Origin: Patescibacteria group bacterium
GTDB lineage: Bacteria; Patescibacteriota; Patescibacteriia; UBA1558; GWA2-36-10
Reading direction: 5' to 3'
Length of the DNA: 64,000 nt
NCBI GenBank assembly: GCA_041662585.1
Contig: JBAZSG010000003.1
Location: 33,011-97,010, forward strand
Shown here: piece by piece, positions 1 to 54,974 of the stretch
Numbering within the stretch: position 1 is the stretch's first letter
Layout: each line of letters begins with the position of its first letter
Translations under genes and position numbers: made by a program
Notes under the pieces: generated by a model
Seen by the model: the letters and a program-made list of their open reading frames with translations, nothing else
What the model was told of the DNA's origin: nothing
Databases searched by the model: none

Positions 1-53
1 GCAATCTTTCTTTATTTACTTATAGTTGTGTAGCTCGGGCATACAGCTATAAT

Positions 54-1022
54 ATGATAGATTTTGTTAATGTTAGTTACGGCCCTATAGCTGCTTATGG
101 TAATAAAGATTATTGGTATTCTTTGTTGAATATGCAGTATTTGACTGATAGTATAGCTAAAAATATACTTGAAGATGATAAATGGTTGGATAAGGTAAGG
201 AAAAAATCCTTGGATAACTTTGAAAAGTTTAAGGAAAATTTTAATAGACAACTGAAGTTAGTAGAATCAAAACCAATAGATTTTTTAATTTGGGTTATAA
301 AAAATTATCCTGATTATTTTGCTAGTCTAGGTTTATATAATGGACTTTGGCGTTATATGGAATATAATAATAACAGCCAGAGAAATATGGCTGATGGCAG
401 TACTGACAAAATAGCTGATGAAAGAAGTCAAGTGGCGATACTTTATCCTTTGGTAGAAAAGTATCTCAAGAGTGCTATTAAATCGATGCTTTCGAGTCTT
501 AATTTGCCGAAAATAGATTATTTGTTATTAACTAGAGAAGAATTGCAAGATGTTTTGGAAAATAATATGGTAAATAAAGAATTACAAATCCTGATAAAGA
601 AAAGAAGTAAAGGTTATGTATATTTATACAAAGATAATATAGAGACCATTATTTTTGATAAAGATGTTTTGAATAAAGTCAAAGATTATGCTATTCCTAA
701 AGTAAAAAATTCAGACATTGTTTACGGCATAGCAGCCTATGGGGGGCTAGTTAAGGGTAAAGTAGTTTTGGATTTAAAAAACTTTGCATCTTATAAAGAG
801 CCAATTTATATTACAGCCATGACTCATCCAGATGAGGTTCCTTGGCTTAAAAAATGTTTAGCTATAGTAACTGATGAAGGAGGAGTATTGTCTCATGTAG
901 CAGTGATTGCCAGGGAATTTAAAATACCTGCGCTTATGGGTACTAAAGTAGCTACCCAAATATTTAAAGATGGCGATATGGTGGAGGTGGATGCTAATAA
1001 AGGGATTGTGAAGAAAATATGA
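54..1022 (+). CDS. PEP-utilizing-enzyme mobile (phosphohistidine swivel) domain protein, paralog 1; 5' end uncertain (frame open to window start)
   Basis: C-terminus ...IVTDEGGVLSHVAVIAREFKIPALMGTKVATQIFKDGDMVEVDANKGIVKKI matches the PEP-utilizers swivel domain (GGxTSHAAIxAREL in PpsA/PPDK/EI). The N-terminal part is unique. The stop overlaps the next start (ATGA). Confidence 0.6.
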   Translation: MIDFVNVSYGPIAAYGNKDYWYSLLNMQYLTDSIAKNILEDDKWLDKVRKKSLDNFEKFKENFNRQLKLVESKPIDFLIWVIKNYPDYFASLGLYNGLWRYMEYNNNSQRNMADGSTDKIADERSQVAILYPLVEKYLKSAIKSMLSSLNLPKIDYLLLTREELQDVLENNMVNKELQILIKKRSKGYVYLYKDNIETIIFDKDVLNKVKDYAIPKVKNSDIVYGIAAYGGLVKGKVVLDLKNFASYKEPIYITAMTHPDEVPWLKKCLAIVTDEGGVLSHVAVIAREFKIPALMGTKVATQIFKDGDMVEVDANKGIVKKI

Positions 1023-2035
1023 ATTTAGATTTTGATAAATCATTAAATTATGAAAGACACCAACGTGATTATTCTATTGTAGTCACTACCCTTGTGTTTA
1101 GAGGTTTGTACAATCAAAATGCCAAGTTTTTTGGTGTAGCTCCTACGGCTTGTTATCTAATAATTAAAAACGATGTTTTATATCATTATATGTCTAAGTA
1201 TGATGGTAAAAGGCGCATGGAAAATTGGCTTCAAAACAATAATATCAAATCTTTTAAAGATCAAGAAAAAATATATTCTGAAAAATTAGAAAAATTTAAT
1301 AAATTTTATAATCAGCAGCCAGATGATTTATTTTTAGCTTTAAAATTGAGCCACGATTTTTTTGTAGATTTCACAGAAATAATTTTATTGGGTTATGAAC
1401 TGCCTTTGTATATGAAAGATATTGCACCTAAAGAAATTATAGATTTTGCTTTTGCTATTAGGCATAAATACGAAGATGTTCACAAAAGAAATGTTGATAT
1501 AACACTAAAGATTTTAAATAAATTGGAAGAAAAGTATAAAATCGAGAAAAATACATTGTCTTATCTAACTATAGATGAGCTAGAAAAATTTTTAAAAACA
1601 GCCGAGTTGCCAGATATTGAAGATAGAAGAAAATATGTATTAATAAAATATGATGGTGATTATTCTTTTTTCTACGACCAAAAAACTTGGAATATTTTAA
1701 ACCCAAAAATAGCTAAAGAATTTGTCCGTGGTAGGACAGCTTTTAAGGGAAAAGTACAAGGCATAGTAAAAGTAATAAATAAGATAAAAGAGGCTGACGA
1801 TTTGAAAGAAGGAGAGATTTTAATTACCAGTATGACAGACCCTCGCTATGTACCAGCTATGAAAAGAGCCGGAGCTATTGTCACTGATGAAGGAGGTATT
1901 ACTTGTCATGCGGCTATAGTTTCTCGTGAGTTAAAAATTCCGTGTGTTATCGGCACAAAAGTTGCTACGGAGATTTTTAAAAATGGCGATATGGTCGAAG
2001 TCGATGCTAATAGTGGTATAGTTAGAAAAATATGA
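1019..2035 (+). CDS. PEP-utilizing-enzyme mobile domain protein, paralog 2 (unique N-terminal domain)
   Basis: C-terminus ...AIVTDEGGITCHAAIVSRELKIPCVIGTKVATEIFKNGDMVEVDANSGIVRKI. There is a 4-nt overlap with both neighbouring genes. Confidence 0.65.
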   Translation: MNLDFDKSLNYERHQRDYSIVVTTLVFRGLYNQNAKFFGVAPTACYLIIKNDVLYHYMSKYDGKRRMENWLQNNNIKSFKDQEKIYSEKLEKFNKFYNQQPDDLFLALKLSHDFFVDFTEIILLGYELPLYMKDIAPKEIIDFAFAIRHKYEDVHKRNVDITLKILNKLEEKYKIEKNTLSYLTIDELEKFLKTAELPDIEDRRKYVLIKYDGDYSFFYDQKTWNILNPKIAKEFVRGRTAFKGKVQGIVKVINKIKEADDLKEGEILITSMTDPRYVPAMKRAGAIVTDEGGITCHAAIVSRELKIPCVIGTKVATEIFKNGDMVEVDANSGIVRKI

Positions 2036-3438
2036 ATATTATGAAAGTAGATAAATATCAAAGAGTATTTGAAAATCAAAATGTAAGGCCATATTATTCT
2101 ATACCTCACAATCAAGGTTTTGGCGAGCCATTAAAAGAATTGGTTAACTATGAATATGATAGAGTAATATACGTGATTTCAGAATCATACGGTAATAAAG
2201 CATATATTCACGAAGATGAAATAAACAAAGGAGCTAATTATTTTTCTAAAATTTGGAAAGATTCAAAAAAGACTAAGGAGATTTTAGCCGAGATAAGAAA
2301 ACGTTTTTTAAATGCCAAAAAACTAGAATTCAATTTATGGAAAATAGATATAATAAATATCAAGGAAGAAAAATTGGTAAGTAAATTAAATAAAATACAA
2401 GACATGTTACTTAATATTTTAAGTGCTCATGTCATTAGCCAGCCACCTCATATAAAAAGTTTGGAAAAGGAGTTAAATAATAGCCTTGAAAAAATAAAAG
2501 ATGTTGATCAATCATTATTAATTAGATCTTTTACACATTTTGAGGGTGTTTTGCCACACGCAGAGGAAGAAAAAGAAATAGAAAAATATAATAAATTATG
2601 GTCAAATATAGACAGCGATAAGAGAGAGACTATATTAGAAGAGTTGGTAAAAAAATATGGTTGGATAAATGCTGTAGAGGGAGATAAACCATATTCTAAA
2701 GAACATTATAAAAATAAAATAGAAACATATAAAAAGTCTTCTGATATAGAATTGTTAGATTTGAGTAAGTATTCTGTACCGCAAGCAGTAAAAATTGGAA
2801 AACTAATTGGTGAATTAGGCTTTTTACGTTTTTGGTCTAGATTTCATATGTTGGCTCTACATTATCAAATGAAACGTATAGTAAAAGAATTAGCCATCAA
2901 AAAAGAAAATAATTTAATAAATTTAATGACCGTAAAAGAAATTACTAATTATATAAATGGAGATGAAATAAATCTTAAAGAGATAGAAAAAAGAAAGAAA
3001 GGTTATGTGGTTTATTTAAAAAATGGAAAAAGTCATTTAGTGTCTGGCCAAGAAACTGATAAATATATTAAACTTACCAAGGAAGATGAATTGTCTCAAA
3101 AACAGATATCTGGATTTGTAGCATGCAGAGGTTTAATAAAAGCTAAAGCTAGAATTATTGATTTTAATTCAAAAGATTATAATAAAGAAGTATCTCAGTT
3201 TAAAAAAGGAGAAATTCTAGTCACAGGTATGACCCGTCCACAAATTGTACATCTATGTAATAAAGCCTCAGCTATTGTAACTGATGAAGGAGGTATAACA
3301 AGCCATGCAGCGGTAGTCAGTAGAGAATTAAATATTCCTTGTGTAATAGGTACTAAAGATGCCACTAAAATTTTTAAAACGGGAGATTTTTTAGAAGTAG
3401 ATGCCAATAAAGGAATAATAACAAAGATTATTAATTAA
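2032..3438 (+). CDS. PEP-utilizing-enzyme mobile domain protein, paralog 3 (unique 380-aa N-terminal region)
   Basis: C-terminus ...AIVTDEGGITSHAAVVSRELNIPCVIGTKDATKIFKTGDFLEVDANKGIITKI. Confidence 0.65.
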   Translation: MNIMKVDKYQRVFENQNVRPYYSIPHNQGFGEPLKELVNYEYDRVIYVISESYGNKAYIHEDEINKGANYFSKIWKDSKKTKEILAEIRKRFLNAKKLEFNLWKIDIINIKEEKLVSKLNKIQDMLLNILSAHVISQPPHIKSLEKELNNSLEKIKDVDQSLLIRSFTHFEGVLPHAEEEKEIEKYNKLWSNIDSDKRETILEELVKKYGWINAVEGDKPYSKEHYKNKIETYKKSSDIELLDLSKYSVPQAVKIGKLIGELGFLRFWSRFHMLALHYQMKRIVKELAIKKENNLINLMTVKEITNYINGDEINLKEIEKRKKGYVVYLKNGKSHLVSGQETDKYIKLTKEDELSQKQISGFVACRGLIKAKARIIDFNSKDYNKEVSQFKKGEILVTGMTRPQIVHLCNKASAIVTDEGGITSHAAVVSRELNIPCVIGTKDATKIFKTGDFLEVDANKGIITKIIN

Positions 3439-3446
3439 TATAATTT

Positions 3447-4373
3447 ATGAGTGAAAAAGAAATGGAAATTATGCCTCAAGGGGGCATAGAAAAACAAAGC
3501 GAAAAGGAAAGAGGTCTAAATAATAGAATATTGCTTAAAATAATTCGTCATGGTGAAAAAACCCCCGAAGGTGCTTTAACTGATTATGGTAGAGAAAAAA
3601 CTAGAGAGACAGTAGCAAATGACAAAAAAATAATAGAAGGCATACAAAAAGTAAAAGTTATGGGTAGTAATGCTGGTCCTAAAAATGAAGCTGGACAAGC
3701 TAGAGCTTTGGAGACAGCTGATATTTATGCAAACACACTGGTTAATGAGGAATATTCTGATCCAGAAATAATAAAGTATGAATCTCGTGCTAGATCAATA
3801 TTGGAAGTGGTTGGTCAAAATACACAACCGCCTTTTAATTGGGGTAAGGAGTATAAAGAAAATTTACCTGAAAATTTTTCAGAATTATCTGATGAGGATA
3901 AAGCAATTGCATCAGCTGAAGCCAATGAAAAAAATCTGACAAAATTAATGACTATGCCCGAAGCAGAAGATTATCGTCAGGAAATATCAGCTAGGTATGC
4001 TATGTTTATAAATACCTATATCAAAATGATAGACCGTATAGAAAATGATCAAAAGATTATGTATCCAGTAGGGGCTCATGGTGGACAAATAGAATTGTTT
4101 TTACAAAAATGTTTAAAACGTAAAACAGAAGATGGTGATGAAATTATTGGTTTTAAGGATAGTAAAGAACTAGGAGGTTCTTTTAATCCTAGTGAAGGAT
4201 TTTTTATTGATATCACCACTGATCAAAATGGAGAAAAGAAAATAGAATTCAATTTTGATGATCCAAAAAGGTTTGAGGGTGAAGAATTGTCACTTGATTT
4301 AGATACTATGTATGAACTTATAGATAAATATAAAGAAAAGTATGGTTCTTTTTATGATAAACAAAACGATTAA
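3447..4373 (+). CDS. histidine phosphatase superfamily (phosphoglycerate-mutase-like) protein
   Basis: N-terminal LLKIIRHGEKTPEGALTDYGREKTRE carries the RHG catalytic motif. A later VGAHGG matches the second-His motif of the PGM-like fold. Confidence 0.5.
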   Translation: MSEKEMEIMPQGGIEKQSEKERGLNNRILLKIIRHGEKTPEGALTDYGREKTRETVANDKKIIEGIQKVKVMGSNAGPKNEAGQARALETADIYANTLVNEEYSDPEIIKYESRARSILEVVGQNTQPPFNWGKEYKENLPENFSELSDEDKAIASAEANEKNLTKLMTMPEAEDYRQEISARYAMFINTYIKMIDRIENDQKIMYPVGAHGGQIELFLQKCLKRKTEDGDEIIGFKDSKELGGSFNPSEGFFIDITTDQNGEKKIEFNFDDPKRFEGEELSLDLDTMYELIDKYKEKYGSFYDKQND

Positions 4374-4389
4374 TTATTATATAAATAAA

Positions 4390-4431
4390 ATAGAAGTAGA
4401 TGCCACAAAAGGTATAGTGAGGAAAGTATAA
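4390..4431 (+). pseudogene. orphan 3' relic of a PEP-utilizer swivel-domain paralog (..IEVDATKGIVRKV*)
   Basis: The in-frame translation of gaagtagatgccacaaaaggtatagtgaggaaagtataa is EVDATKGIVRKV-stop. That is nearly identical to the paralog C-termini VEVDANKGIVKKI and VEVDANSGIVRKI. A stop lies a few codons upstream. Confidence 0.55.
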
Positions 4432-4496
4432 AATAGGCATTAGACAATTTGGTTATTATTAGCTAAACTTTTAATATAATTATTTATATTTTAAAA

Positions 4497-5330
4497 ATGA
4501 AAATATTGATCATAGGCAAAGGCTATCTGGGTACTCGTTGTGCTGAGGCCTGGAAAAATGCTGTCATTAGCGACAAGATCGTAGTCACAGTCAAAGACGT
4601 GGAAGAGCTTATTGACCAACATCAGCCCGATGCTATTTTAAATGCGGCTGGTGTAGTGGGTAAACCAAATGTAGATTGGTGCGAAAACCATCAAATAGAA
4701 ACTATCAAAGGCAATACTATTTTGCCGTTGATTATAGCGGAAGCTTGTCAAAACAAGGGCGTTTATCTTTTACATATGGCCACCGGTTGTATTTTTTATG
4801 GACAGTCTCCTCACGGTGGTCCATGGACAGAAGAGGATTACGGCAATCCAACAGCGGTTTACACCAAATCAAAACTGGCGGCTGATTTAGCTCTGTCTAC
4901 TTTGCCCAATGTCGGTATTGCTCGTATTCGTATGCCTTTTGATAGCTGCTCTCATCCAGCTAATCTCATTGATAAGCTGGCTAAATATGAAAAAATAATT
5001 GATGTAGAAAATTCCATGACGGTAGTAGATGATATGATTGATGTTTTTTATCAATTACTTGAAAAGAAAGCTGAAGGGATATTTCATGTGACCAATCCAG
5101 GGTCCATCAAACACAAAGAAATAATGGAGCTTTACAAAAAATATGTAGATCCAAATCACAGAAATGAATGGATTACCGAAGAAGATTTGGTCAAGCTCGG
5201 GCTGGCCAATAAAAAAAGATCAAATAATATTATGACCTCTTTAAATCTGCCTAAATATGGTATTAAAATGCGGCCGATAAAAGAAGCCGTTGAAGAGGCT
5301 CTTAAAAAATACGCTAAAGGTAAAAAATAA
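4497..5330 (+). CDS. dTDP-4-dehydrorhamnose reductase-like (RmlD-family) sugar-nucleotide reductase
   Basis: MKILIIGKGYLGTRCAEAW Rossmann N-terminus, RmlD-like length and layout. GC is noticeably higher (~40-45%) than in the flanks. Confidence 0.5.
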   Translation: MKILIIGKGYLGTRCAEAWKNAVISDKIVVTVKDVEELIDQHQPDAILNAAGVVGKPNVDWCENHQIETIKGNTILPLIIAEACQNKGVYLLHMATGCIFYGQSPHGGPWTEEDYGNPTAVYTKSKLAADLALSTLPNVGIARIRMPFDSCSHPANLIDKLAKYEKIIDVENSMTVVDDMIDVFYQLLEKKAEGIFHVTNPGSIKHKEIMELYKKYVDPNHRNEWITEEDLVKLGLANKKRSNNIMTSLNLPKYGIKMRPIKEAVEEALKKYAKGKK

Positions 5331-5332
5331 TT

Positions 5333-6061
5333 ATGAGAGGAATAATTTTAGCCGGCGGAGCCGGTAATAGATTGAAACCCTTGACTAAAGTAACTTCTAA
5401 ACAGTTACTGCCTATTTATGATCAGCCGATGATCTATTATCCACTGCAGACTTTAATCAATGGCGGTATCCAAGATATTTTGGTGATTTCTGATCCTAAT
5501 AATATTGGCAATATTGTCCGGTTATTAGGTAGTGGTAAAGATTTTGGTGTCAGAATTCGCTATGAGGTCCAAGATAGTCCCGACGGTCTAGCTCAGGCAT
5601 TTTTGCTTGGTGAGATTTTTATCGGTGATGATGATGTAACTCTTATACTGGGCGACAATCTTTTTGTCGGCGATGGTAAATTTTTGGAGGAAGCGATTCG
5701 AAGTTTTAAGGGTGGTGGTCGGGTTTTTGCCAAGGAAGTGCCAGATCCAGAAAGATATGGTGTAGTAGATTTTGACAAAAAGGGGCAAGCCATTAGCATT
5801 GAAGAAAAACCAAAAAATCCCAAAAGTAATTATGCGGTCACTGGTTTATATATTTATGATAATGGTGTAATTGCCAAAGCCAAAAGTTTGAAACCTTCGG
5901 CTCGCGGAGAATTGGAAATTACCGATGTTAATAATCTTTACCTTAAAGAAGGAAGATTAGATGTCAGAATTTATAAAGATTATTGGCTAGACACCGGTAC
6001 TTTTGATGCTTTACTTGAAGCCGGAAATACTATTGCTAAATTGAGAAAAAATGCTAAATAA
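5333..6061 (+). CDS. glucose-1-phosphate thymidylyltransferase-like nucleotidyltransferase (RmlA family, short form)
   Basis: MRGIILAGGAGNRLKPLTKVTSKQLLPIYDQPMIYYPL is the canonical RmlA/RfbA N-terminus. Confidence 0.65.
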   Translation: MRGIILAGGAGNRLKPLTKVTSKQLLPIYDQPMIYYPLQTLINGGIQDILVISDPNNIGNIVRLLGSGKDFGVRIRYEVQDSPDGLAQAFLLGEIFIGDDDVTLILGDNLFVGDGKFLEEAIRSFKGGGRVFAKEVPDPERYGVVDFDKKGQAISIEEKPKNPKSNYAVTGLYIYDNGVIAKAKSLKPSARGELEITDVNNLYLKEGRLDVRIYKDYWLDTGTFDALLEAGNTIAKLRKNAK

Positions 6062-6063
6062 GT

Positions 6064-6833
6064 ATGAATTTTGAAAATGTTAATGCTAATCTAGAAAAAG
6101 AAAGTAAAGGTGAAAATGTAATTGTTCATTCTGTTTTTATTCGTCATGGAGAAAAATTTCATGATATAAATAATCCAGAAACAGAACTTACTCCTAAAGG
6201 GAGAGAGGCGAGTCGTGAAATTGGAAAAAATAGGCCGGAAGTTGATGCTATAAAAGGCTATAGTAGTGATACTCAAAGAACCCAAACTATGATCCAAATA
6301 ATGAATTTACCAAGAAATTGCAAGGGATAAAAGAAGAGTTGCTAGGAAAAGGATATGATGATTTATCAGAGAATCAAAAAGAAGCCAGGTTAGATGAATA
6401 CAACTCTGTTATTACTGATTGTTATTTAGCTTTGGGTGATCAGAGACCAGATCCAAATACTTATTCCCCAGTAGAAACAGCCGCTACTATGGCCAAGATA
6501 TTGGATAATAATATTAGGATGGCCGATAGATTAAAATCTAATTCAGAAGTTGATTTGGTCAATGCCACACATGATTTTAATATAGTAGCTTTCTTAAAGG
6601 AAGTCTTGGTAAGAAAAATAGATGATAAAAAAGTAGTTGGTTTTGATTCTGTTAAGGAAATAGGAGGAAGTATGGAATTTAATGGTGGTTTTGAAGTTTT
6701 AATAAAGACAGATAATGATGGGCACAAAACTCTAAAAATATTATTTAGAGGAGAAGAATACGAAATAGATGAGACAAGATTAACAGAATTAGTACAAATA
6801 GCCAAAGATTTAAAAAAGCAAGATGAAAAATAA
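6064..6833 (+). pseudogene. histidine phosphatase superfamily paralog, interrupted by a frameshift (ORFs 6064..6330 and 6318..6833)
   Basis: ORF1 has VFIRHGEKFHDINNPETELTPKGREASRE (RHG motif). ORF2 (KEIGGSMEFNGGFEVLIKTDNDGHKTLKILFRGEEYE, VNATHDFN) aligns to the C-terminal two-thirds of 3447..4373. The frame switch lies around 6300-6330. Confidence 0.5.
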
Positions 6834-6850
6834 TATAATAATTTATATAT

Positions 6851-7147
6851 ATGCCAAAATTAAATATAAAACCTTCAAGCAAGGCTAAGCTTAAGATTAA
6901 AAGGCCTATTAAAACAGAATCTAAGTTAGAAAAACTTAATAAAATATTAGATAGAGTACGTCCAGCACTAGAGCGAGATGGAGGCAATCTAGAGCTGATC
7001 AATTTTGATGAAAAAAATGGTTTAGTTGAAATTACATTTCAAGGTGCTTGCGCTCATTGTTCTTTGGCTGATGTTACATTAAAACATTTGATAGAATCTG
7101 AAATTAGAGCTCAAATGCCAGAAATAAAAGAAGTAAGATCTATATGA
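6851..7147 (+). CDS. NifU-like (Nfu-type) Fe-S cluster domain protein
   Basis: VRPALERDGGNLELINFDEKNGLVEITFQGACAHCSLADVTLKHLIESEI matches the NifU C-terminal / Nfu domain pattern (G-x-C-x-x-C ... TLK). The stop overlaps the start of the next gene. Confidence 0.6.
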   Translation: MPKLNIKPSSKAKLKIKRPIKTESKLEKLNKILDRVRPALERDGGNLELINFDEKNGLVEITFQGACAHCSLADVTLKHLIESEIRAQMPEIKEVRSI

Positions 7148-8502
7148 GTAGAAAGTATGATTTTATGTCAAAACCTTGGGTATATTCTATTTCTAGAAAT
7201 ATACATTTTTGGCACGATGAATTATCTATTAAATATAGTTATGCAGGTTGTAAGAAATTAAAATTACCTTCTTTTCATTATGCTCGGATTAATAATACAG
7301 GTCATGGAGATTTTTTTTATTTAGAAACAGGAGAGTATGGTAAGGATAAATTTAATAAAGCTTTAGAAGATAATTTTAAAGATAAAAAATATATTAATTT
7401 TTTAGAAAATTATTATATCAGTAATGGAGAAAAATTGGTTGAACATTCTAAAAAATTAAAATTAGATTATAAAGAATTTAAAGATTATTTTACAGAATAT
7501 GGAATAATGTGTCCTACTTTAGATGGTACTAACACAGGCAGTAAAATTATTACAGATTATTTATTAAATAAGTTATCTAGCTATCCTGATGCTACTGACA
7601 TTATTTCTTATTACTCTCAAATGCCTAAAAAAAGTCCCATGCAGAAGATGGATGAGGAGTTAGCTAAAGGCATTAAAAATAAAGTAGATAAAAAGAAATT
7701 AGCTAAAACATTATATAATAAGTATTGTTGGATACCAATTAGTTTTATTGGAGATCCTTGGGATTTAAAATATTTTGAAGATAAGATTAAAAAATATAGT
7801 CCAAATAAAGAACATAAATTATCTAAACCAAAAGTTCAAATAGCAGATAATTTAATGTATTACTTAAAATTATTAGGTAAAATAGCTTATTTAAATGAAT
7901 ATAGAAAATCTGTTTTTACTAGAGCCAATTATTATATTAGGCCGTTATTAGAAAAAATTGCTCAGGAGTATAATTTGGGTACTTGGAAAGAAATAAATCT
8001 TTTAGCTAGTAATGAGATATTAGATTTATTAGATGGTAAAGATGATTATCAAAAAAAATTGATAAAAGAGAGAAGAAAGGACTGGTTAATGTATGCGGTT
8101 GGTCGAGAGGGTATTGATTATGTCCATGGAAAGTTGGTAAAAGATTTTAGAAATAAATTTATGCCAAAAGCGAATGGTTTAAATTATGTTTCAGGTACAA
8201 TTGCCAATAAAGGTAAGGTCAGAGGTGTAGTAAAAATTATATATGAACCAAAAGATTTTAATAAGTTTAAGAAAGGGGATATATTAGTAGCTAAGATGAC
8301 CTCTATTGATTTTATACCAATAATGAAGCGTGCGGCAGCTTTTGTTACTAACGAAGGGGGTTTAGCATGTCATGCAGCTATAGTTTCTCGTGAATTAAAC
8401 ATCCCCTGTATAATAGGAGCTAAGATAGCTACCGAAGTTTTTAAAGACGGTGACAGAGTAGAAGTAGATGCTAATAGAGGTATAGTTAAGAAGATAAAAT
8501 AA
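7144..8502 (+). CDS. PEP-utilizing-enzyme mobile domain protein, paralog 4 (unique N-terminal domain)
   Basis: C-terminus ...AAFVTNEGGLACHAAIVSRELNIPCIIGAKIATEVFKDGDRVEVDANRGIVKKIK. Confidence 0.65.
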   Translation: MSRKYDFMSKPWVYSISRNIHFWHDELSIKYSYAGCKKLKLPSFHYARINNTGHGDFFYLETGEYGKDKFNKALEDNFKDKKYINFLENYYISNGEKLVEHSKKLKLDYKEFKDYFTEYGIMCPTLDGTNTGSKIITDYLLNKLSSYPDATDIISYYSQMPKKSPMQKMDEELAKGIKNKVDKKKLAKTLYNKYCWIPISFIGDPWDLKYFEDKIKKYSPNKEHKLSKPKVQIADNLMYYLKLLGKIAYLNEYRKSVFTRANYYIRPLLEKIAQEYNLGTWKEINLLASNEILDLLDGKDDYQKKLIKERRKDWLMYAVGREGIDYVHGKLVKDFRNKFMPKANGLNYVSGTIANKGKVRGVVKIIYEPKDFNKFKKGDILVAKMTSIDFIPIMKRAAAFVTNEGGLACHAAIVSRELNIPCIIGAKIATEVFKDGDRVEVDANRGIVKKIK

Positions 8503-8520
8503 TTTTAGACAAACGGAAAA

Positions 8521-8573
8521 GCGGCGACACGTTGTGTGTGTCGCCGCTTTGTTGTTAGTCCGTTGAGCGGACT
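8521..8573. terminator. pair of GC-rich hairpins (gcggcgacac..gtgtcgccgc and agtccgttgagcggact) acting as a bidirectional terminator
   Basis: Perfect inverted repeats, followed by a T-rich run on either strand. Confidence 0.55.
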
Positions 8574-9147
8574 ACTCTTCAATCCAGACGGCATCGATAC
8601 TGCCGTCGTCGTATAGGCGGAAGCGAATCGCTTCCATGGCATCGAGGCTGTGAGCATCGGTCATGCCGAGACACTTGGCCAGCATGGGGATGGTGGGATC
8701 GTGGAAGATCCCGACACCGTGCTGACCCGAATCCATCAGGTCGAACATCTGCTTGAGAGCATTGCGGGCTCCAATGTTGAAGTCAACGAGTACCTGCCGG
8801 TCGATGTTTACGAGCACGGCCTCCATATTGGAGAGGCCACCCTTGATGTCGGCCCGGACATGGTCGGTGATGATAGTGGCGAACAGTTCGCTACTACCGA
8901 GACCGTGGATCGGGTCATGCATCTTCACATGAGTGAAGGCCTGATTGGCTGTCATCATGGCGATGGCGGTTTCGCAGGTGCGGGCGAGAGGCCCCCAGAA
9001 GAGATGGTGAATATTCATGTTGCCTTCGTCGTAGCGCTCCGAGCCTATTTCGTAGGCGTAGGTGGCTCCGTCATAGGAGACATGATTGCCACCGGTATCT
9101 TTGTGCGTGTGGCGATACAAGTCTACGGTTTTGGTTATCTGGGCCAT
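8572..9147 (-). CDS. GC-rich histidine phosphatase superfamily-like protein (start placed at MAQITK..)
   Basis: Strong GC3 codon periodicity. The SD AGGGAGG lies 6 nt upstream of the ATG at 9147. DLYRHTHKD and later WGPLARTCETA resemble the RHG and S-x-L-x-RA-x-QTA motifs of the PGM/SixA fold. The ORF track's longer start at 9213 has no RBS. Confidence 0.45.
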   Translation of the reverse strand: MAQITKTVDLYRHTHKDTGGNHVSYDGATYAYEIGSERYDEGNMNIHHLFWGPLARTCETAIAMMTANQAFTHVKMHDPIHGLGSSELFATIITDHVRADIKGGLSNMEAVLVNIDRQVLVDFNIGARNALKQMFDLMDSGQHGVGIFHDPTIPMLAKCLGMTDAHSLDAMEAIRFRLYDDGSIDAVWIEE

Positions 9148-9222
9148 TTTGGGCCTCCCTGTTTTGGGTTTTGTATGGTACGCCCCTAAATATAGGGGAT
9201 TCTTGTATTTCAAGAATATATT

Positions 9223-9251
9223 AGTATAGCATATTTTTTATTTAATGTCAA
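9223..9251 (-). promoter_or_regulatory. sigma70-like promoter TTGACA-N17-(TGc)TATACT for 8572..9147
   Basis: The reverse complement reads ttgacattaaataaaaaatatgctatact, with an extended -10 TGn. Confidence 0.5.
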
Positions 9252-9292
9252 TATATATAATATATATTATATAGTAAAAAATACTATAAACA

Positions 9293-9321
9293 TTGACATT
9301 TATACTATATCATGCTAGACT
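9293..9321 (+). promoter_or_regulatory. sigma70-like promoter TTGACA-N17-(TGc)TAGACT for 9341..11149
   Basis: cattgacatttatactatatcatgctagact sits 20 nt before the ATG and is divergent from the minus-strand promoter. Confidence 0.45.
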
Positions 9322-9340
9322 GAGTAATTGATAAAAACAT

Positions 9341-11149
9341 ATGTTGGATAAAATTATAAATTCAAAAACTCGTCTAGCTATCTTGTCTTTATTTTTTAAA
9401 AATCAAGACAAAGAATTTTATGCTGGAGAGATTATCAAACAAAGCAATATGGATGCAGCTAATGTCCATAAAGAATTAAAAAATTTGGTAGCTGGTAAAT
9501 TTGTATTGCAAGAAGATAAATCAAGTAGAAAATATTTTTCTTTAAATAAAGATAATATTTTTTATAATGGTTTGGATAAGGTATTTAGTCAATATAAAGT
9601 ATCCATATCTGGAGATGTGTGGTTTTCTTTGGAATCAATGCCAAATTATTATCCTATGGTGGTGGCTTTTACTTGGAATGTAAAACGAGCCAATGATTTT
9701 TTACAAAGCCGTGGCTATAAAAATAAATTTACCAAACTACTCACTACCTATAACAATAATATCAATGATTTGCTTTTGATTAAAAAAGAATTTGACGACT
9801 TATCACAAGAAACTTTAGATAAGATTAATTCTGATCCAGATTGGGGGCATAGATATGTTGATGATTTATCACAAGCCATCCCTAAGTTGGTTAAAGCCAC
9901 TAAAGATTTGGAAAAAGTAAATTTGGGCAAATTATCCAATGAAGAATTATATAATTTATATCAGGAGTATTATGATGCTTATGGACGTCTTCATAGATTT
10001 CACTGGGTACAAACCATCGCTGATTTTGGTGACAATTTGTTTTCTAAATATCTAATGAATTATTTGCGTCATAAGGTCAAAGATAGCCAATATTCTTTGG
10101 GAGAAGTCTTTTCTACTTTGACAACTCCGATAGAAGACGGTCAAGCCGCTAAAGAGTATCAAAATTTATTAGGTATCTTAAAAAATATAATAGCTGATGA
10201 AAATCTAAAACAATATTTTAAAGATACCGAAACTCGTATTATTTACAGAGATTTAAAAAATGTTAATAAGGTTGTTGATGAACAAATTTCTGAACATACT
10301 GGGCTCTATGGTTATCTTGGTTATGGTATGGCCGGCCCTGGTTGGGGTAAAGACTATTTTATTGATATTTTAGGATCTTTGGTCAGACAGAATACCAATC
10401 CTAGTGAATTATTGGATAATTTACAAAAAGACAAAATAAACATTGAAGCCAAACAGCAGAAATTTATTAAACAACTAGAGGTAGATGAAAAACATCAGCA
10501 ATTGTTTGAAGTAGCTAGAGGTTTGGTTTTTACCAAAGGTACTCGCAAGGAATCTATGTTTTACAGTTATAGTGTTATAGAAAATTTGTTTAGAGAAATT
10601 GGTCGCCGTTATTATTTATCGGTCAATCAGGTGAGATATTTTTATCCCCATGAATTTGAAGATTTATTGCTTCACAATAAATTTAGTGCGGCTAAACTAA
10701 ATGAGCGTTATAAATTTAGTTTGCAATATTCAGTAGGTGATTATCATCAAGATAAATTATTAGAAGGTGAAGAAGCTAGAAAATTTTTAGAAAATTTTAA
10801 TATTGTCAAAGAGGAAATCGTTGATATTAAAGTAATGGAAGGAGATTGTGCTTCTCCTGGTCGAGCTCGTGGTAGTGCAAAAATTATCAATATTCCCAAA
10901 GATATGAGTAAAATGGAACAAGGCGATGTGCTTATATCTATCGCCACTACTCCGGATTTAGTACCAGCTATTAAAAAGGCTAGTGCTATTGTCACTGACG
11001 TCGGAGGTATTACTTGTCATGCTGCCATTGTTTCTCGTGAATTGGGCATTCCTTGTGTTATTGGTACTAAAATCGCTACCAAAGCCTTAAAAGATGGTGA
11101 TGTAGTAGATGTAGATGCTACGCATGGTAAAGTTACGATTGTCCGGTAG
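9341..11149 (+). CDS. winged-helix (ArsR/MarR-like) DNA-binding domain fused to a PEP-utilizing-enzyme mobile domain, paralog 5
   Basis: N-terminus KTRLAILSLFFKNQDKEFYAGEIIKQSNMDAANVHKELKNLVAGKFV is a wHTH pattern. C-terminus ...ASAIVTDVGGITCHAAIVSRELGIPCVIGTKIATKALKDGDVVDVDATHGKVTIVR. Confidence 0.6.
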   Translation: MLDKIINSKTRLAILSLFFKNQDKEFYAGEIIKQSNMDAANVHKELKNLVAGKFVLQEDKSSRKYFSLNKDNIFYNGLDKVFSQYKVSISGDVWFSLESMPNYYPMVVAFTWNVKRANDFLQSRGYKNKFTKLLTTYNNNINDLLLIKKEFDDLSQETLDKINSDPDWGHRYVDDLSQAIPKLVKATKDLEKVNLGKLSNEELYNLYQEYYDAYGRLHRFHWVQTIADFGDNLFSKYLMNYLRHKVKDSQYSLGEVFSTLTTPIEDGQAAKEYQNLLGILKNIIADENLKQYFKDTETRIIYRDLKNVNKVVDEQISEHTGLYGYLGYGMAGPGWGKDYFIDILGSLVRQNTNPSELLDNLQKDKINIEAKQQKFIKQLEVDEKHQQLFEVARGLVFTKGTRKESMFYSYSVIENLFREIGRRYYLSVNQVRYFYPHEFEDLLLHNKFSAAKLNERYKFSLQYSVGDYHQDKLLEGEEARKFLENFNIVKEEIVDIKVMEGDCASPGRARGSAKIINIPKDMSKMEQGDVLISIATTPDLVPAIKKASAIVTDVGGITCHAAIVSRELGIPCVIGTKIATKALKDGDVVDVDATHGKVTIVR

Positions 11150-11215
11150 ACAAAAGGTCCATTGGACTTTTTGTTTTAAGCATACTAAAATTAAGATAAA
11201 TATTAATTTATTACT

Positions 11216-12154
11216 ATGGAATTAGTCAGAGATTTTAAAAAAATAGATAAAAATCATGTCGCTTTGGCTGGAGGTAAGGGGGCATCTTTAGGAGAAATGA
11301 CCAAAGCGGGTATTCCTGTACCACCTGGTTTTGTGGTTTTATCTGGAGCTTTTGACAGATTTTTAGAAGAAACAGATTTGAATGTAGAAATAGAAGCTAT
11401 TTTAAAAACAGTTAAACATGAAGATGTTAATTCTGTGGAAAAGTCTTCTTTAAAAATAAGAGATTTAATTGCTGATGCTAAGATGCCAGAGGATATTGCC
11501 AAAGAAATTAAAGTATCTTTTAAAAAGCTTGATGCTAAATATGTAGCTGTGCGTTCTTCTGCTACAGCTGAGGATTCATCTATTGCATCTTGGGCCGGAG
11601 AATTGGAGTCATATCTTAATACCACAGATAAAGATTTGCTTGATAATGTCAAAAAATGTTGGTCATCACTTTTTACACCTCGGGCAATTTTTTATCGTTT
11701 TGAAAAAAAATTACATAACACTAAGGTATCTGTAGCTGTGGTAGTACAAGCAATGGTGCAGTCACAAGTGAGTGGTATTGTTTTTACTGTTCATCCAGTC
11801 ACAGAAGATCAGAAACAGATGATTATTGAAGCTGGTTGGGGATTGGGTGAAGCTATTGTTTCAGGTATGGTTACTCCCGATGCTTATGTTATAGATAAAA
11901 CAGATTTTTCTATTGTGGATATCAATATTTCAGATCAAGCCAAATACATTATCAAAACTAACAAAGGCAACAAATTTACAGATGTGCCTAGTGATAAACG
12001 TGAAGAGCAAAAATTGTCTGGTGCTCAGATTGTAGAGCTAGCCAAAATTTGTGTGGATATTGAAAAACACTACGGCTTTCCTTGTGATATAGAATGGGCT
12101 ATGGAAAAAAATAAATTTTATATTACCCAGTCCAGACCAATCACCACTTTATAA
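11216..12154 (+). CDS. free-standing PEP synthase / pyruvate phosphate dikinase N-terminal ATP-grasp (PPDK_N) domain protein
   Basis: VALAGGKGASLGEMTKAGIPVPPGFVVLSGAF matches the PpsA N-terminus (GGKGANLGEL..GxxVPxGF). Only 312 aa, with no swivel and no PEP-binding domain. Confidence 0.7.
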   Translation: MELVRDFKKIDKNHVALAGGKGASLGEMTKAGIPVPPGFVVLSGAFDRFLEETDLNVEIEAILKTVKHEDVNSVEKSSLKIRDLIADAKMPEDIAKEIKVSFKKLDAKYVAVRSSATAEDSSIASWAGELESYLNTTDKDLLDNVKKCWSSLFTPRAIFYRFEKKLHNTKVSVAVVVQAMVQSQVSGIVFTVHPVTEDQKQMIIEAGWGLGEAIVSGMVTPDAYVIDKTDFSIVDINISDQAKYIIKTNKGNKFTDVPSDKREEQKLSGAQIVELAKICVDIEKHYGFPCDIEWAMEKNKFYITQSRPITTL

Positions 12155-12171
12155 ATTTTATATAAAAGAAA

Positions 12172-12198
12172 AGAGCCCAGTTGTTTAGACAGGGCTCT
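12172..12198. terminator. bidirectional rho-independent terminator hairpin (agagccc..gggctct)
   Basis: The inverted repeat is flanked by an A-run upstream and a T-run downstream. Confidence 0.55.
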
Positions 12199-12221
12199 TT
12201 TAAATTCGCGGTGTTGGCGAA

Positions 12222-12719
12222 TTATACCTCGGTTTCGCCGAGTTGGTCGAGAATCGACCAGCCGATTTCACCGTTTTCGTCGATGGTGATCTCGATGACT
12301 GAGCCGCTTTTGGCGGCTTCTATACCCAGAGACTTGGCAAATGGTCTGCCGGTGCATAGCACAGCCCCATCGGGCAGAGACTCCAGGAAAGCAGGAATGG
12401 CGGGCGCCATATCAGCGATGCCGGTGTAGGCATCATAGGCACAGTGGTTGCCGTCGGCAAAGACGATGGTCGGCTGACCATCGATCATGTCGAGCGACGT
12501 GGCGTCACCCAGAAGCAGAGTTGAGCGGGTCATGGTCAGACCCAGTGTGGCAGCAACGTGCCGATGTCGGCGACCAGTGCCGCATATTACAGCCGCAGGA
12601 TTTTCAGGGAGGAGTCCCTTGAGGGACTCAATCTGATTTACTCCTTTGAGAGTCATCAGGGGGTCAGCCCCATCGCTCTTGTCGCCGTGCAATACGGCGA
12701 AAAATTGATTGACTTTCAC
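12222..12719 (-). CDS. GC-rich SixA-like (phosphohistidine phosphatase-type) histidine phosphatase family protein, GTG start
   Basis: GC3-rich codons. FFAVLHGDKSDGADPLMTLKG ... VICGTGRRHRHVAATLGL has the same layout as SixA (IMRHGDA...RPLT.NG ... VLVSPFLRAEQT), but with L in place of the catalytic R. Confidence 0.4.
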   Translation of the reverse strand: MKVNQFFAVLHGDKSDGADPLMTLKGVNQIESLKGLLPENPAAVICGTGRRHRHVAATLGLTMTRSTLLLGDATSLDMIDGQPTIVFADGNHCAYDAYTGIADMAPAIPAFLESLPDGAVLCTGRPFAKSLGIEAAKSGSVIEITIDENGEIGWSILDQLGETEV

Positions 12720-12766
12720 TTTTTAGCCTTTCTTTTGGGTTGTAGGGTACTTGATTTTAATATAAT

Positions 12767-12795
12767 ATTATAGCATATTTTTATACTTTTGTCAA
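12767..12795 (-). promoter_or_regulatory. sigma70-like promoter TTGACA-N17-(TGc)TATAAT for 12222..12719
   Basis: The reverse complement reads ttgacaaaagtataaaaatatgctataat. Confidence 0.5.
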
Positions 12796-12845
12796 TGATA
12801 GTATTTTTTTAAAAATAATTATTTTGAGGTGGTGTTTTATTGCTA

Positions 12846-12874
12846 TTGACAATAATCACTATATATGCTAATAT
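12846..12874 (+). promoter_or_regulatory. consensus sigma70 promoter TTGACA-N17-TAATAT
   Basis: ttgacaataatcactatatatgctaatat. It drives the GC-rich transcript that ends at the 13286-13319 terminator. Confidence 0.5.
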
Positions 12875-13027
12875 ACAAAATACTTTGATTTTGTAGTGTC
12901 TATCGCTTGTATAAGCAAGGACACTCAAGTCAGGGTAGTATCATTACAATCAAAAAAGGTTGCGACCAAAAGTTGGTTGCAACCAAACAAACACTGAAGT
13001 TGGCCAAGCAGGCCAAGGAGGTTCTTG

Positions 13028-13120
13028 ATGCGTACCTACAAGAAGCATCACTCGCCCCCGTCCGTGGTTTTTACGAATATTATCACCAAAAAGGCGAAGA
13101 AGACCGCCACGACGAGCTGA
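13028..13120 (+). CDS. small ORF MRTYKKHHSPPSVVFTNIITKKAKKTATTS with a perfect SD
   Basis: AAGGAGG lies 6 nt upstream of the ATG. The track's alternative 12907..13167 ORF starts with TTG inside the hairpins and lacks an RBS. Confidence 0.3.
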   Translation: MRTYKKHHSPPSVVFTNIITKKAKKTATTS

Positions 13121-13285
13121 CCGAGATCCGGCCGGCGGTCGTGATTCTGATGAGTATCAGAAAATAAGCTCAATCAGACAACGACCTGCCGAACGAACGA
13201 ACATCAAAAAACTGAATTCGCCGGCGCAAGCCGTACAAAAATGACGGCGATTTGCCGACGATTCAGCAGTGCTCTTCTGTGTATG

Positions 13286-13319
13286 CCGCCCCACCTAGCT
13301 AGGTCGGGGCGGTTTTTTA
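13286..13319 (+). terminator. strong rho-independent terminator (ccgccccacctag/ctaggtcggggcgg + T7)
   Basis: A 12-13-bp GC stem followed directly by TTTTTTATT. Confidence 0.7.
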
Positions 13320-13394
13320 TTGACATTTTTTCTTAAAATTGTTCAAATATTGGGTAGATTTTTTATAAATAATGTGTTAAAATAAGTACATAAT

Positions 13395-13754
13395 ATGTCT
13401 ATAATTCGCACCAGCAAAGTATTATATAAAGATAAATTAGCTTTTTGGCTAATTAATTTTTCTTTTTTGTCTATATTAGCCACTTGGTTTTTATTTTTTA
13501 TTAAAAGAATCAAATATGATCCTTTGGCTGTACTACATTACAATATTTACTCGGGGATTGATATTTTGGGTGCTTGGTACATACTTTTTATTATTCCGGT
13601 TTTAGTTTTAATTGTATCATTTTTAGATTTCTTTTTAGCGGTATTACTTTGGACTAAAGTAAGGGTCATGAGTTATTTTTTATTGCTTACTATTTTACTT
13701 ATAAATGTTTTTATGTTTTTATTTTTATATAATATATTAAATTACAATTTATAA
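13395..13754 (+). CDS. small integral membrane protein (3 predicted TM segments), unknown function
   Basis: Highly hydrophobic 119-aa ORF immediately upstream of mraY. Confidence 0.4.
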   Translation: MSIIRTSKVLYKDKLAFWLINFSFLSILATWFLFFIKRIKYDPLAVLHYNIYSGIDILGAWYILFIIPVLVLIVSFLDFFLAVLLWTKVRVMSYFLLLTILLINVFMFLFLYNILNYNL

Positions 13755-54107: not shown

Positions 54108-54974
54108 ATGCGTACACGTAATTTCAGTTTTTTGGCGATGGCTTTCGTAGCCATCATGCTCACTGTCGTTTCTACTCAGGCTAAGGTGGTCCTCACGCCG
54201 ACCACAGTTGACTCTGTCGGAGTCGAAAGAGTCGGAGACAGCACCTTGCTCAAGGTGCCGGCGACAATAGAGGTCTACGATTCCTTATTTGTTGACAGCG
54301 TCAACACTTATCGAATCAATGATTTGGTTGAAGCTATTAAGCAAGTCGATTCGACTTTCGATGGTAGCGAAGCCGCCGTCAAGGCTCGCATCACACAGCG
54401 CGAAGCTCGGGCCAAGGCCGAGGCCGACAGTCTGGCAGCTGCTGAAGCCGCCGAATTGAAGAAGCTTCACAAGCAGTGGAGCAAAGAAGTGAAACCGCTG
54501 TCGTATGACAGCGTCTGGGTATGGGCTTTGATTCCTGATAACGATACCGCTTATATGAAAGCGGAATGGTTGGCCGAGCGTTATAGCTTGACACTGAGTC
54601 AAGCTGACATCTACAACCTTGATTCGAAAGAGATCATTGAAGAGCTCAAAGCTCAACTTCGGCAGCGACAGAAAATCAATGCCACAGTCGATACTCGCAT
54701 CGCCAAATCAATCGCTGGACTGCAAAGTCAGCTCAACGCTTTGAGCGATACCCTGTCTCAGACCCGGGCCGGCGTGGAGCTCGCATACAAGTTGGCGGAT
54801 GAAGCCAATTGCAAGGCCGAGGCCAATACGGCCGAAATATCAAGGCTCTGGAGCGTTTGGGAAGCGCTCGAAGTACAGGACAGTGTTTCCACTGTCCCTA
54901 ACCCCGAGACCACCACACCTCCCCCCGCTCCCGACTCTTCCAATGCATCTTTGGTCAAAAACGACGGCAAATAA
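54108..54974 (+). CDS. GC-rich secreted protein (signal peptide, central coiled coil, Pro/Thr-rich C-terminus), unknown function
   Basis: MRTRNFSFLAMAFVAIMLTVVSTQA signal peptide. Codon GC3 bias and GC content are sharply different from the flanks. SD GGAAGGGG. Confidence 0.5.
   Translation: MRTRNFSFLAMAFVAIMLTVVSTQAKVVLTPTTVDSVGVERVGDSTLLKVPATIEVYDSLFVDSVNTYRINDLVEAIKQVDSTFDGSEAAVKARITQREARAKAEADSLAAAEAAELKKLHKQWSKEVKPLSYDSVWVWALIPDNDTAYMKAEWLAERYSLTLSQADIYNLDSKEIIEELKAQLRQRQKINATVDTRIAKSIAGLQSQLNALSDTLSQTRAGVELAYKLADEANCKAEANTAEISRLWSVWEALEVQDSVSTVPNPETTTPPPAPDSSNASLVKNDGK

Follow-up and report, generated by a model that had tools for sequence, protein, structure and literature searches.

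Reduced genomes such as those of Rickettsia, Mycobacterium leprae and insect endosymbionts are known to carry gene remnants left behind by deletions. Islands that integrate into tRNA or tmRNA genes, for their part, restore the 3' end of their target, and illegitimate recombination facilitated by homology has also been described. Here we analyse a locus of a tiny, uncultured member of the Patescibacteria, contained in a stretch of 64,000 nt (the window), in which 42 bases reading as the tail of a phosphohistidine swivel-domain gene stand between a histidine-phosphatase-like gene (HisP1) and the genes rmlD and rmlA (Table 1). Are these bases the residue of a lost gene, or did some other event put them there? 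Judging from its sequence, we take this stub to be what is truly left of a swivel-domain paralog that was lost, and as such an ordinary gene-loss scar.

Table 1. Features at and around the stub; positions are those of the window
Feature	Position	Strand	Description
g2, swivel paralog	1019..2035	+	Ortholog of L007 gene d, 68% identity
g3, swivel paralog	2032..3438	+	Directly upstream of HisP1
HisP1	3447..4373	+	Intact, 308 aa, histidine-phosphatase-like, RHGE motif, paralog of HisP2
Spacer TTATTATATAAATAAA	4374..4389	+	16 nt, 100% A+T, from HisP1 stop to stub; holds the left breakpoint of the rearrangement
Orphan swivel-domain (PF00391-type) 3' stub	4390..4431	+	13 codons IEVDATKGIVRKV + TAA; 42 bases
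Conserved rmlD upstream region	4432..4496	+	AAAATAGGCAT-TAGACAATT...ATTATTAG...TTTTAATATAATT aligns with L007 block
RmlD-like SDR	4497..5330	+	Pfam RmlD_sub_bind; 91% identical to L007 ortholog; GC 38.5%, GC3 0.34
RmlA-type glucose-1-phosphate thymidylyltransferase, short form	5333..6061	+	GC 37.7%, GC3 0.28
HisP2 pseudogene	6064..6833	+	Two ORFs, 6064-6330 and 6318-6833

The stub reads ATA GAA GTA GAT GCC ACA AAA GGT ATA GTG AGG AAA GTA TAA, and its homology possibly begins one codon further left, at 4387. In the right frame, and with its stop at the canonical place, it fits the signature ..(V/I)EVDAxxGxVxx(I/L/V) that PF00391 family members carry near their stop codon, and all 13 residues are states present in about 100 members of the family in databases. 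On a tail profile built on the C-terminal 14 residues of the five paralogs in the window it scores 43.8, more than the true paralog g5 (34.0). Chance was gauged with 200 order-2 Markov simulations of the 64-kb window, in which the best score of each run averaged 20.1 (sd 2.3) and never exceeded 26.6. Alignment to the paralog 3' ends gave 28/36 identical nucleotides with the best tail, against 24/36 at the next-best unrelated site in the window and a maximum of 25/36 over 100 simulations. Both tests bear out the proposal, made in an earlier note on this DNA, that the bases carry the C-terminal signature of the paralog family. The note was also right that the rest of the gene is gone: tblastn with all paralogs detected no further swivel sequence in 4374-4496. 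The stub comprises only the last 13 residues of a domain that when complete spans ~72 residues with a TDxGGxxxHAAI phosphohistidine loop, and the frame upstream of it is HisP1 coding sequence. Less exact was the note's placing of a stop codon just before the relic. A TAA does stand at 4371-4373, but it ends HisP1 in another frame; the in-frame stop lies at 4321-4323, which leaves 21 open codons of the relic frame across the 3' end of HisP1. With family homology, truncation, no start of its own and no conservation as such in relatives, the stub has the marks of a gene remnant. Assemblies from three samples agree in every base of its junction, which is therefore not an assembly artefact.

Nucleotide identity was tried as a guide to the parent paralog and carries no signal. 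The stub matches every extant tail, in the window and in relatives, at 26-28/36, so its parent gene cannot be named. The tail of g2 and the stub were also compared as candidate orthologs of the tail of gene d in the nearest relative (L007), where gene d directly abuts rmlD; the counts, 30/36 and 27/36, do not differ significantly.

The spacer to the left of the stub shows no similarity, by eye, to the spacer downstream of HisP1 (HisP1-q) in the relative L005. An 8-nt direct repeat, TAAAATAG, stands on either side of the stub and is uninterpretable in its 100% AT context. To the right, the stub directly adjoins the conserved rmlD promoter region, the promoter itself starting ~10 nt past the stub's stop codon. 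The promoter-like sequence there, TAGACA-17-TAAACT at 4441-4469, is only a 9/12 match, and the overall count of the promoter scan did not exceed that of shuffles; we call it the rmlD promoter because it is conserved in L007, L044, L047 and L050, not because of the scan. Transcription of rmlD would be predicted to start ~7 nt beyond 4469. The first 11 nt of the region resemble the 3' arm of a two-hairpin element at the same place in L007. An Rfam search of window positions 1-14,000 and of a hairpin element from L046 (see below) returned nothing relevant.

The array genes have in common only their conserved C-terminal phosphohistidine swivel domain, and histidine-phosphatase-like genes stand among them. 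Six complete swivel paralogs are present at the locus in this genome, one of them located before the window begins, which would make the stub the seventh and not, as the earlier note counted, the sixth. HisP1 has no Pfam or NCBIfam match, but RHGEK is present and it aligns by eye with HisP2, the N-terminal fragment of which scores 24.9 against histidine phosphatase branch 1 (PF00300; gathering threshold 21.7). HisP2 has lost 79 internal nt in a clean deletion that splits it, as comparison with the intact 280-aa gene of L007 shows; this is a second decay event at the locus. The pair downstream of the stub is RmlD-like and RmlA-like, as the note had it. The first protein scores 75.7 with Pfam RmlD_sub_bind (threshold 27) and 80.3 bits with TIGR01214 (cut-off 224), and it is a member at family level only, with dTDP-4-dehydrorhamnose reductase as a putative activity. 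The second, predicted to be RmlA-like, is a short 242-aa form that matches TIGR01207 over its full length, just under the equivalog cut-off (329.4 bits against 360.65), and Pfam NTP_transferase with 223 bits (threshold 21.2). RmlB, encoded upstream of the array in the source contig (L001:3362-4402), scores 450.2 bits with TIGR01181, above the cut-off of 365.1.

Comparison with relatives shows which part of the locus is old. HIT-rmlB-rmlD-rmlA-NifU is the usual gene order in some 80 related Patescibacteria loci, and swivel genes (one to five) stand between rmlB and rmlD only in a Komeilibacteria-like subgroup, the others having none. Since the order is common and the insertions are confined to one subgroup, the swivel array is what varies at a site where rmlD and rmlA are resident. 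The widespread order rmlB-rmlD-rmlA-NifU is accordingly the ancestral one in Patescibacteria, and the swivel genes are lineage-specific insertions into it. The five-gene order is contiguous in L044 and L049, whose RmlB proteins are as close to that of the window as is the RmlB of L007. In L007 itself rmlD-rmlA-HisP2-NifU lies at the same place behind the same promoter block. A complete swivel gene directly abuts rmlD in L007, L045, L048 and L053, and the 65 nt that follow the stub can be aligned with the promoter block of L007; the stub therefore lies where the tail of a swivel gene is expected. At the stub position itself L007, L005, L045, L053 and L048 have full genes or nothing. A HisP1-family gene followed 14-40 nt on by a swivel gene of 503-508 aa occurs in L005, where the former is an 81% identical ortholog of equal length, and in L093, where it is a 40% homolog. 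Searches of protein, genome and metagenome collections yielded no genome closer than ~80% protein identity, at which pS is saturated, and a literature search on swivel-domain arrays in Patescibacteria/CPR found nothing relevant.

The swivel/His-phosphatase array is dynamic, and its turnover is real, as the earlier note had supposed. No two relatives have the same gene content and order, a 72-nt gene-conversion tract joins two paralogs in L007, and HisP2 is a pseudogene. A second orphan tail occurs in L046, and its left end agrees with that of the window stub (the E of EVDA) to within 3 nt. There a complete gene with a different tail is followed by a 65-nt hairpin element and then by the orphan tail, the last 30 nt of which are identical to the 3' end of a neighbouring paralog. 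This case looks more like the insertion of a replacement tail than like a deletion.

How, then, did the stub in the window arise? The explanation that we favour, and consider somewhat more probable than the sum of its competitors, is that it is the non-functional 3' remnant of a swivel gene that formerly separated HisP1 from the resident rmlD-rmlA pair. As the comparison of loci shows, an ancestral dTDP-rhamnose operon (rmlB-rmlD-rmlA, then NifU) has been split by the variable array in the Komeilibacteria-like lineage. A recent deletion of ~1-1.5 kb would have taken out the body of the last array member. The gene lost was probably a swivel gene of ~500 aa after HisP1, as in the relatives. The deletion would have run from near its start codon to codon -14, ending short of the rmlD promoter, and the stub, which would do nothing now, may simply not have decayed yet. 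In a crude neutral-decay simulation a tail this good had P < 0.03 after 0.15 substitutions per site, and synonymous differences between this genome and its nearest relatives amount to 0.5-0.7; the loss would therefore be recent. The nearest comparators are saturated at synonymous sites, and none is close enough to show the state before the event. Random deletion end points leave the shared start of the window and L046 stubs, at the E of EVDA, unexplained.

An explanation without any gene loss is unlikely but has several observations on its side. A block made up of a swivel tail and HisP1 might have entered, by recombination, a resident swivel gene that then abutted rmlD (g3 or its predecessor), one junction being homologous, within the conserved swivel-coding region, and the other illegitimate; with a new tail supplied by the insert, the original one, pushed downstream, would be the stub. 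An inserted replacement tail would be expected to leave just the arrangement seen in L046, and the two known stubs begin at the same codon. The last codon and stop of g3 and the spacer up to the start of HisP1 are homologous to the corresponding junction in L005, formed there by gene p, although g3 and p are not orthologs; HisP1 would therefore travel with a piece of swivel tail. Both of these tails have unusual C-terminal extensions (IIN* and IVVLNN*), and the longest exact run of the stub, 15 nt, is shared with g3. Against all this, the first 36 nt of the p tail match g3 at 0.78 and p's own ortholog in this genome (s1) at 0.81, which lends no support to a tail swap; for a swap upstream of HisP1, tail identities do not discriminate. 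Nor is HisP1 a recent mobile arrival, an idea that we rejected since its pS against L005, at 0.60, does not stand out among its neighbours. Relatives have a swivel gene after HisP1, and deletion is the simpler fit.

Going further, one might speculate, with much doubt, that the swivel 3' end is a portable recombination handle. Exchange would resolve repeatedly at GAAGTNGATGC (EVDA) and leave orphan tails, of which the window and L046 stubs would be footprints. Such cassette exchange would swap array members and small hairpin elements in and out, and so bring diversity to the variable N-terminal domains that a multi-paralog phosphotransfer system of Patescibacteria carries.

Quite doubtful, too, is an exchange of alleles, in which the block from the promoter through rmlD and rmlA to HisP2 was swapped in from an L007-like relative and the stub marks the edge of the tract inside the donor's swivel tail. 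The composition of the pair gives some reason to consider it. Its GC3 values (Table 1) match those of the L007 orthologs (rmlD 0.32, rmlA 0.28) and not the host median of 0.22, native genes lying at 0.15-0.26 and the host rmlB, at 0.21, being host-like; the GC3 of HisP2 in the window, however, is low. Divergence from L007 points the same way: pS is 0.47 in rmlD, 0.53 in rmlA and 0.28 in HisP2, as against 0.59-0.68 in rmlB, HIT, g2/d, NifU, PPDK_N and MraY. That said, g5 and g1/b also have pS of ~0.5 although they lie outside the block. RmlA is 99% and RmlD 91% identical to L007 and only 78-83% to L044 and L049, which is incongruent with RmlB and NifU, these being about equally distant from all three; in nucleotides rmlA is only 87% identical to L007, with pN/pS of 0.02. 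Along the DNA, identity to L007 falls at two places, the HisP2/NifU boundary and the stub. In very conserved genes, however, pS can be lowered and GC3 raised by strong purifying selection and by codon preference. Moreover, a pS of ~0.5 is still very high, so that any exchange would be old, while the stub looks young. A recent transfer tract was sought within rmlD-rmlA and rejected: sliding identity to L007 is a uniform 83-93%, and 4-fold sites differ at 0.43-0.46. Since synonymous divergence from the nearest relative is this high, near saturation, rmlD and rmlA are not a recent import. The above-background GC3, the somewhat lower pS and the incongruent identities are a residual hint of a separate history for the pair, and would allow at most an old allelic exchange, not an insertion. 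Under a purely vertical history, the mildly atypical GC3 of rmlD and rmlA and their pS below that of most flanking genes remain as oddities.

The view advanced in the earlier note, that a foreign cassette of higher GC carrying rmlD and rmlA was inserted and replaced a paralog, is very improbable. The stub does lie at the left edge of the pair, and the pair's GC is modestly above the genome average; the excess, however, is smaller than claimed, 38.5% and 37.7% having been measured where the note gave 40-45% (the window averages 32%, and its GC islands reach 52-56%). Synteny contradicts an incoming pair, rmlD-rmlA being resident phylum-wide and in the nearest relative, and the promoter block shared with L007, the partner rmlB on the other side of the array, the lack of mobility genes in the pair and a synonymous divergence near background all speak against it. 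Hardly credible, finally, is a chance match, or a part of a functional small ORF or regulatory leader (the 29-codon ORF at 4345-4431, MVLFMINKTINYYINKIEVDATKGIVRKV*), for although the open frame contains ATG codons and the tail a purine-rich GAGGAAA run, the match is far above chance, the upstream part of the ORF overlaps the 3' end of HisP1 in another frame, 13 residues cannot form a 72-residue swivel domain, and no relative compared carries a homolog of the ORF or the stub as a small ORF, the check that had been proposed.

The value of the stub, read as the remnant of a deleted gene, is that of a dated marker: it would indicate that genes still enter and leave the swivel/His-phosphatase array inside the rhamnose operon of ultra-small bacteria, and that they do so much faster than the known relatives have diverged from one another. 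Which way the event ran also matters for annotating the locus, since the array has invaded a site to which the sugar genes are native. If a shared breakpoint of independent stubs proved general, a specific recombination mechanism diversifying an uncharacterised family of swivel proteins would be implied.

How does the locus compare with described systems? Like PEP synthase, PPDK and rifampicin phosphotransferase, the paralogs have a complete C-terminal PF00391 domain, whose last strand the stub matches, itself without the catalytic histidine region; unlike those enzymes they lack ATP-grasp and PEP-binding domains, and a separate PPDK_N gene is nearby. The rml (dTDP-L-rhamnose) operon is matched by rmlB, rmlD and rmlA, contiguous in most relatives but here split by 4-5 unrelated genes, and no rmlC was seen; the RmlD-like protein falls well short of the equivalog cut-off and is listed in some sources as a 3,5-epimerase/4-reductase. 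Islands that restore a 3' end resemble the L046 case, and would resemble the window if the old tail was pushed downstream, in that the insert brings a new 3' end and the original is left as a direct-repeat stub; here, however, there is no integrase, att site or mobility gene, and what is inserted is either ordinary array genes or a 65-nt hairpin element. With the remnants of reduced genomes the stub has in common that it is a short, in-frame, promoterless fragment of a family gene in an intergenic spacer of a small AT-rich genome, next to the decaying HisP2. It differs from them in that only the last 13 codons are left, almost undecayed, and in that its parent came from a tandem array with gene conversion.

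The histidine-phosphatase-like gene HisP1 and rmlD are separated by a 123-nt spacer (HisP1 stop at 4373, rmlD start at 4497), in which positions 4390-4431 encode IEVDATKGIVRKV, then TAA. The five swivel paralogs of the window end in VEVDAN(K/S/R)GIV(K/R)KI or near variants, and the stop of this 13-codon stub is at the canonical position. Is the likeness accidental? Scored against a position-specific profile of the five in-window tails, the stub reaches 43.8 and the next real non-paralog site 23.4; in 200 order-2 Markov simulations the best score per 64-kb sequence averaged 20.1 (sd 2.3) with a maximum of 26.6. In the nucleotide alignment to the paralog 3' ends, the stub and the best tail are identical at 28 of 36 positions, compared with 24 for the best unrelated window site and 25 for the best of 100 simulations. 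At each of the 13 positions, the residue is one that also occurs there among about 100 database homologs. The match thus exceeds chance at both protein and nucleotide level, and the proposal of the earlier note that this is a C-terminal remnant of the swivel family holds. The junction is identical across assemblies from three samples, and the window is located within a 702-kb Patescibacteria contig (ERZ27249449 k141_305749).

Apart from the stub, the spacer contains no recognizable swivel-gene sequence. The stop codon said to precede the relic (4371-4373) is that of HisP1 and lies in a different frame; in the frame of the stub the preceding stop is 4321-4323, and the open frame upstream of the stub overlaps the HisP1 coding sequence. 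As a small ORF the stub is conserved in no relative examined, and no Rfam family matches the region. Its 13 residues are too few for the 72-residue swivel domain; the phosphohistidine loop is absent, and we propose no function for it. The lost gene would be a seventh paralog rather than a sixth: the locus already has six complete ones, five in the window and one farther upstream.

Swivel-domain genes, rml genes and their neighbors (window positions unless stated otherwise)
Feature	Position	Evidence
Swivel genes	54-1022, 1019-2035, 2032-3438, 7144-8502, 9341-11149	Pfam PF00391 at C-terminus in 5/5
HisP1	3447-4373	308 aa; histidine-phosphatase-like, RHGEK motif, paralogous to HisP2
RmlD-like (family level only)	4497-5330	Pfam RmlD_sub_bind 76 bits; TIGR01214 80 bits (cut-off 224)
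RmlA, short form	5333-6061	TIGR01207 329 bits (cut-off 361); Pfam NTP_transferase 223 bits
HisP2	6064-6833	Histidine-phosphatase-like, RHGEK motif; N-terminal fragment passes PF00300
PPDK_N (ATP-grasp), separate gene	11216-12154	
RmlB, bona fide	Source contig, upstream of entire swivel array	TIGR01181 450 bits (cut-off 365)

The earlier note took rmlD and rmlA for an incoming pair that replaced a paralog. About 80 related loci, gathered via rmlD and HisP1 homologs and annotated by BLAST against the window proteins, indicate the opposite polarity. HIT-rmlB-rmlD-rmlA-NifU is contiguous in most Patescibacteria (e.g. L017, L020-L022, L037, L039, L044, L049, L071), and swivel genes interrupt this order in a Komeilibacteria-like subgroup alone (the L007 group, L013/L043, L029/L053, L045, L046, L048, L005 and the window), where one to five of them occupy the rmlB-rmlD and rmlA-NifU intervals. 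Loci L044 and L049 have no swivel genes; their RmlB proteins are 82% and 85% identical to that of the window, as against 82% for L007. The latter, of Komeilibacteria RIFOXY type, is the nearest relative with rmlD context (RmlD 91%, RmlA 99%), and its order, a-b-c-d-(85-nt element)-rmlD-rmlA-HisP2(intact)-NifU-...-g5-PPDK_N, has the same frame as the window. The 65 nt 5' of window rmlD also align with L007: ...AAAAT(A/T)GGCA(T/G)TAGACAATT...ATTATTAG...TATAATT. By synteny and this conserved upstream block, rmlD and rmlA are the ancestral occupants of the site, and the variable insert is the swivel array. Of the supposed gene-replacement scar, the lost paralog is supported and the replacement by rmlD/rmlA is not.

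By orthology the window genome reads rmlB-s1-g1-g2-g3-HisP1-stub-rmlD, L007 reads rmlB-a(=s1)-b(=g1)-c-d(=g2)-element-rmlD, and L005 reads rmlB-p(=s1)-HisP1-q(508 aa)-r(=g2)-s-t... Synonymous sites are saturated between all three (pS 0.6-0.78), and gene order is reshuffled in each. The stub adjoins the conserved rmlD promoter block, the very place taken by the tail of the final array gene in L007, L045, L048 and L053, and a 503-508-aa swivel gene lies 14-40 nt 3' of HisP1-family genes in L005 and in the distant L093. The simplest history would be an ancestral order HisP1-X-rmlD, X being a swivel gene and last array member, whose body was deleted from about the start codon to codon -14, leaving the tail. 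Identity does not single out a candidate for the parent X, as all extant tails match the stub at 26-28 of 36 positions. In a crude AT-biased neutral-decay simulation a tail this good survived with P < 0.03 at 0.15 substitutions per site and P = 0.005 at 0.20, so that survival through 0.15 or more appears unlikely. Such fast decay would make the event much younger than the splits among the three genomes, and the state just before it is visible in no available relative.

The main rival to deletion of X comes from the one further orphan tail in 1.14 Mb of related loci, (A)EVDANNGIIKKL plus stop at L046 12414-12455. It lies directly 3' of a GC-rich two-hairpin element, and its stop codon shares bases with the start of a P-loop gene; over its last 30 nt it matches the 3' end of a neighboring paralog (9645-10985) without a difference. 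This arrangement (complete gene with a different tail, element, old tail) points to an inserted replacement tail more than to a deletion. An analogous insertion of a tail+HisP1 block into a gene then adjoining rmlD is an unlikely account of the window. Both orphan tails begin, within 3 nt, at the E of EVDA, a coincidence improbable if breakpoints are evenly spread over 1-1.5 kb genes, with n = 2 and shorter stubs undetectable; that a recombination hot spot or cassette exchange lies behind it we consider quite improbable.

The element (~65-85 nt) follows a swivel-gene stop at L007 9863-9939 and L046 12352-12416; the two copies are 90% identical, with two compensatory base-pair changes in the second hairpin, and have no Rfam match. 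Of this element the window retains no more than 11 nt that resemble the 3' arm (AAAATAGGCAT, 4431-4441). In L048 (~1738-1812) the swivel tail just 5' of rmlD continues through GC-rich hairpin sequences (ending ...KILSPKGRPASGWNK and a stop), so small GC-rich insertions recur at the swivel/rmlD junction.

The GC of the rml pair is 38.5% (rmlD) and 37.7% (rmlA), not the 40-45% of the earlier note; GC3 (0.34 and 0.28, equal to the L007 orthologs) exceeds the host median of 0.22; host rmlB has 0.21. Four-fold sites differ from L007 by 0.46 (rmlD) and 0.43 (rmlA), with flanking genes at 0.41-0.67. Nei-Gojobori pS is 0.47 for rmlD, 0.53 for rmlA, 0.49-0.51 for g5 and g1/b, 0.59-0.68 for rmlB, HIT, g2/d, NifU, PPDK_N and MraY, and 0.28 for HisP2. 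Any import of the pair would thus not have been recent, and the 99% identity of RmlA to L007 reflects purifying selection of great strength (pN/pS 0.02; 87% identity in nucleotides). The window and L007 group far more tightly by RmlA and RmlD than by RmlB or NifU, an apparent phylogenetic incongruence within the locus. Window RmlA and RmlD are 99% and 91% identical to L007 but 76-83% to L044 and L049; RmlB and NifU are about equidistant (70-85%) among all four. The GC3 and the grouping are compatible with a minor rival, in which the rmlD-rmlA-HisP2 block was exchanged for another allele long ago; neither supports insertion of novel genes.

That the array is dynamic, as first proposed, is borne out beyond the L046 tail. 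Every relative compared has its own set and order of array genes. Adjacent L007 paralogs b (6693-7766) and c (7777-8829) share an exact 72-nt 3' end and only ~58% identity just upstream (-91 to -210), evidently a recent gene conversion. The stop-spacer-start junction 5' of HisP1 is homologous in the window and L005, and the upstream gene bodies are non-orthologous. Window HisP2 is a pseudogene: compared with its L007 ortholog, which is intact at 280 aa, it has lost 79 internal nt in a clean deletion and is split into ORFs 6064-6330 and 6318-6833. Its pS is about half that of all neighboring genes, which suggests more recent exchange ahead of inactivation.

The overall locus (window 1-12154 and, upstream of it, source contig L001 3362-5438) has six genes with a common swivel domain and differing N-terminal regions; with PPDK_N and the His-phosphatase-like genes, all lie within the rmlB-rmlD-rmlA-NifU operon. 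The locus resembles a split phosphotransfer system serving multiple substrates. In L093 a >2152-aa protein with PPDK_N and several swivel domains adjoins a HisP homolog. Three ORFs of 52-56% GC (GC3 0.58-0.70) stand out in this 32% GC genome (8572-9213 and 12222-12719, minus strand; 54108-54974, plus strand); none has a Pfam match above the gathering score. L007 has unannotated minus-strand genes at corresponding positions (12794-13372, 16456-16947), and a GC-rich stretch exactly at the swivel/rmlD junction of L046 (~7330-7900) may encode another.

The stub would matter more only if the common breakpoint proved a general recombination mechanism. It is a real, ordinary but neatly datable gene remnant, a further instance of a kind already known.
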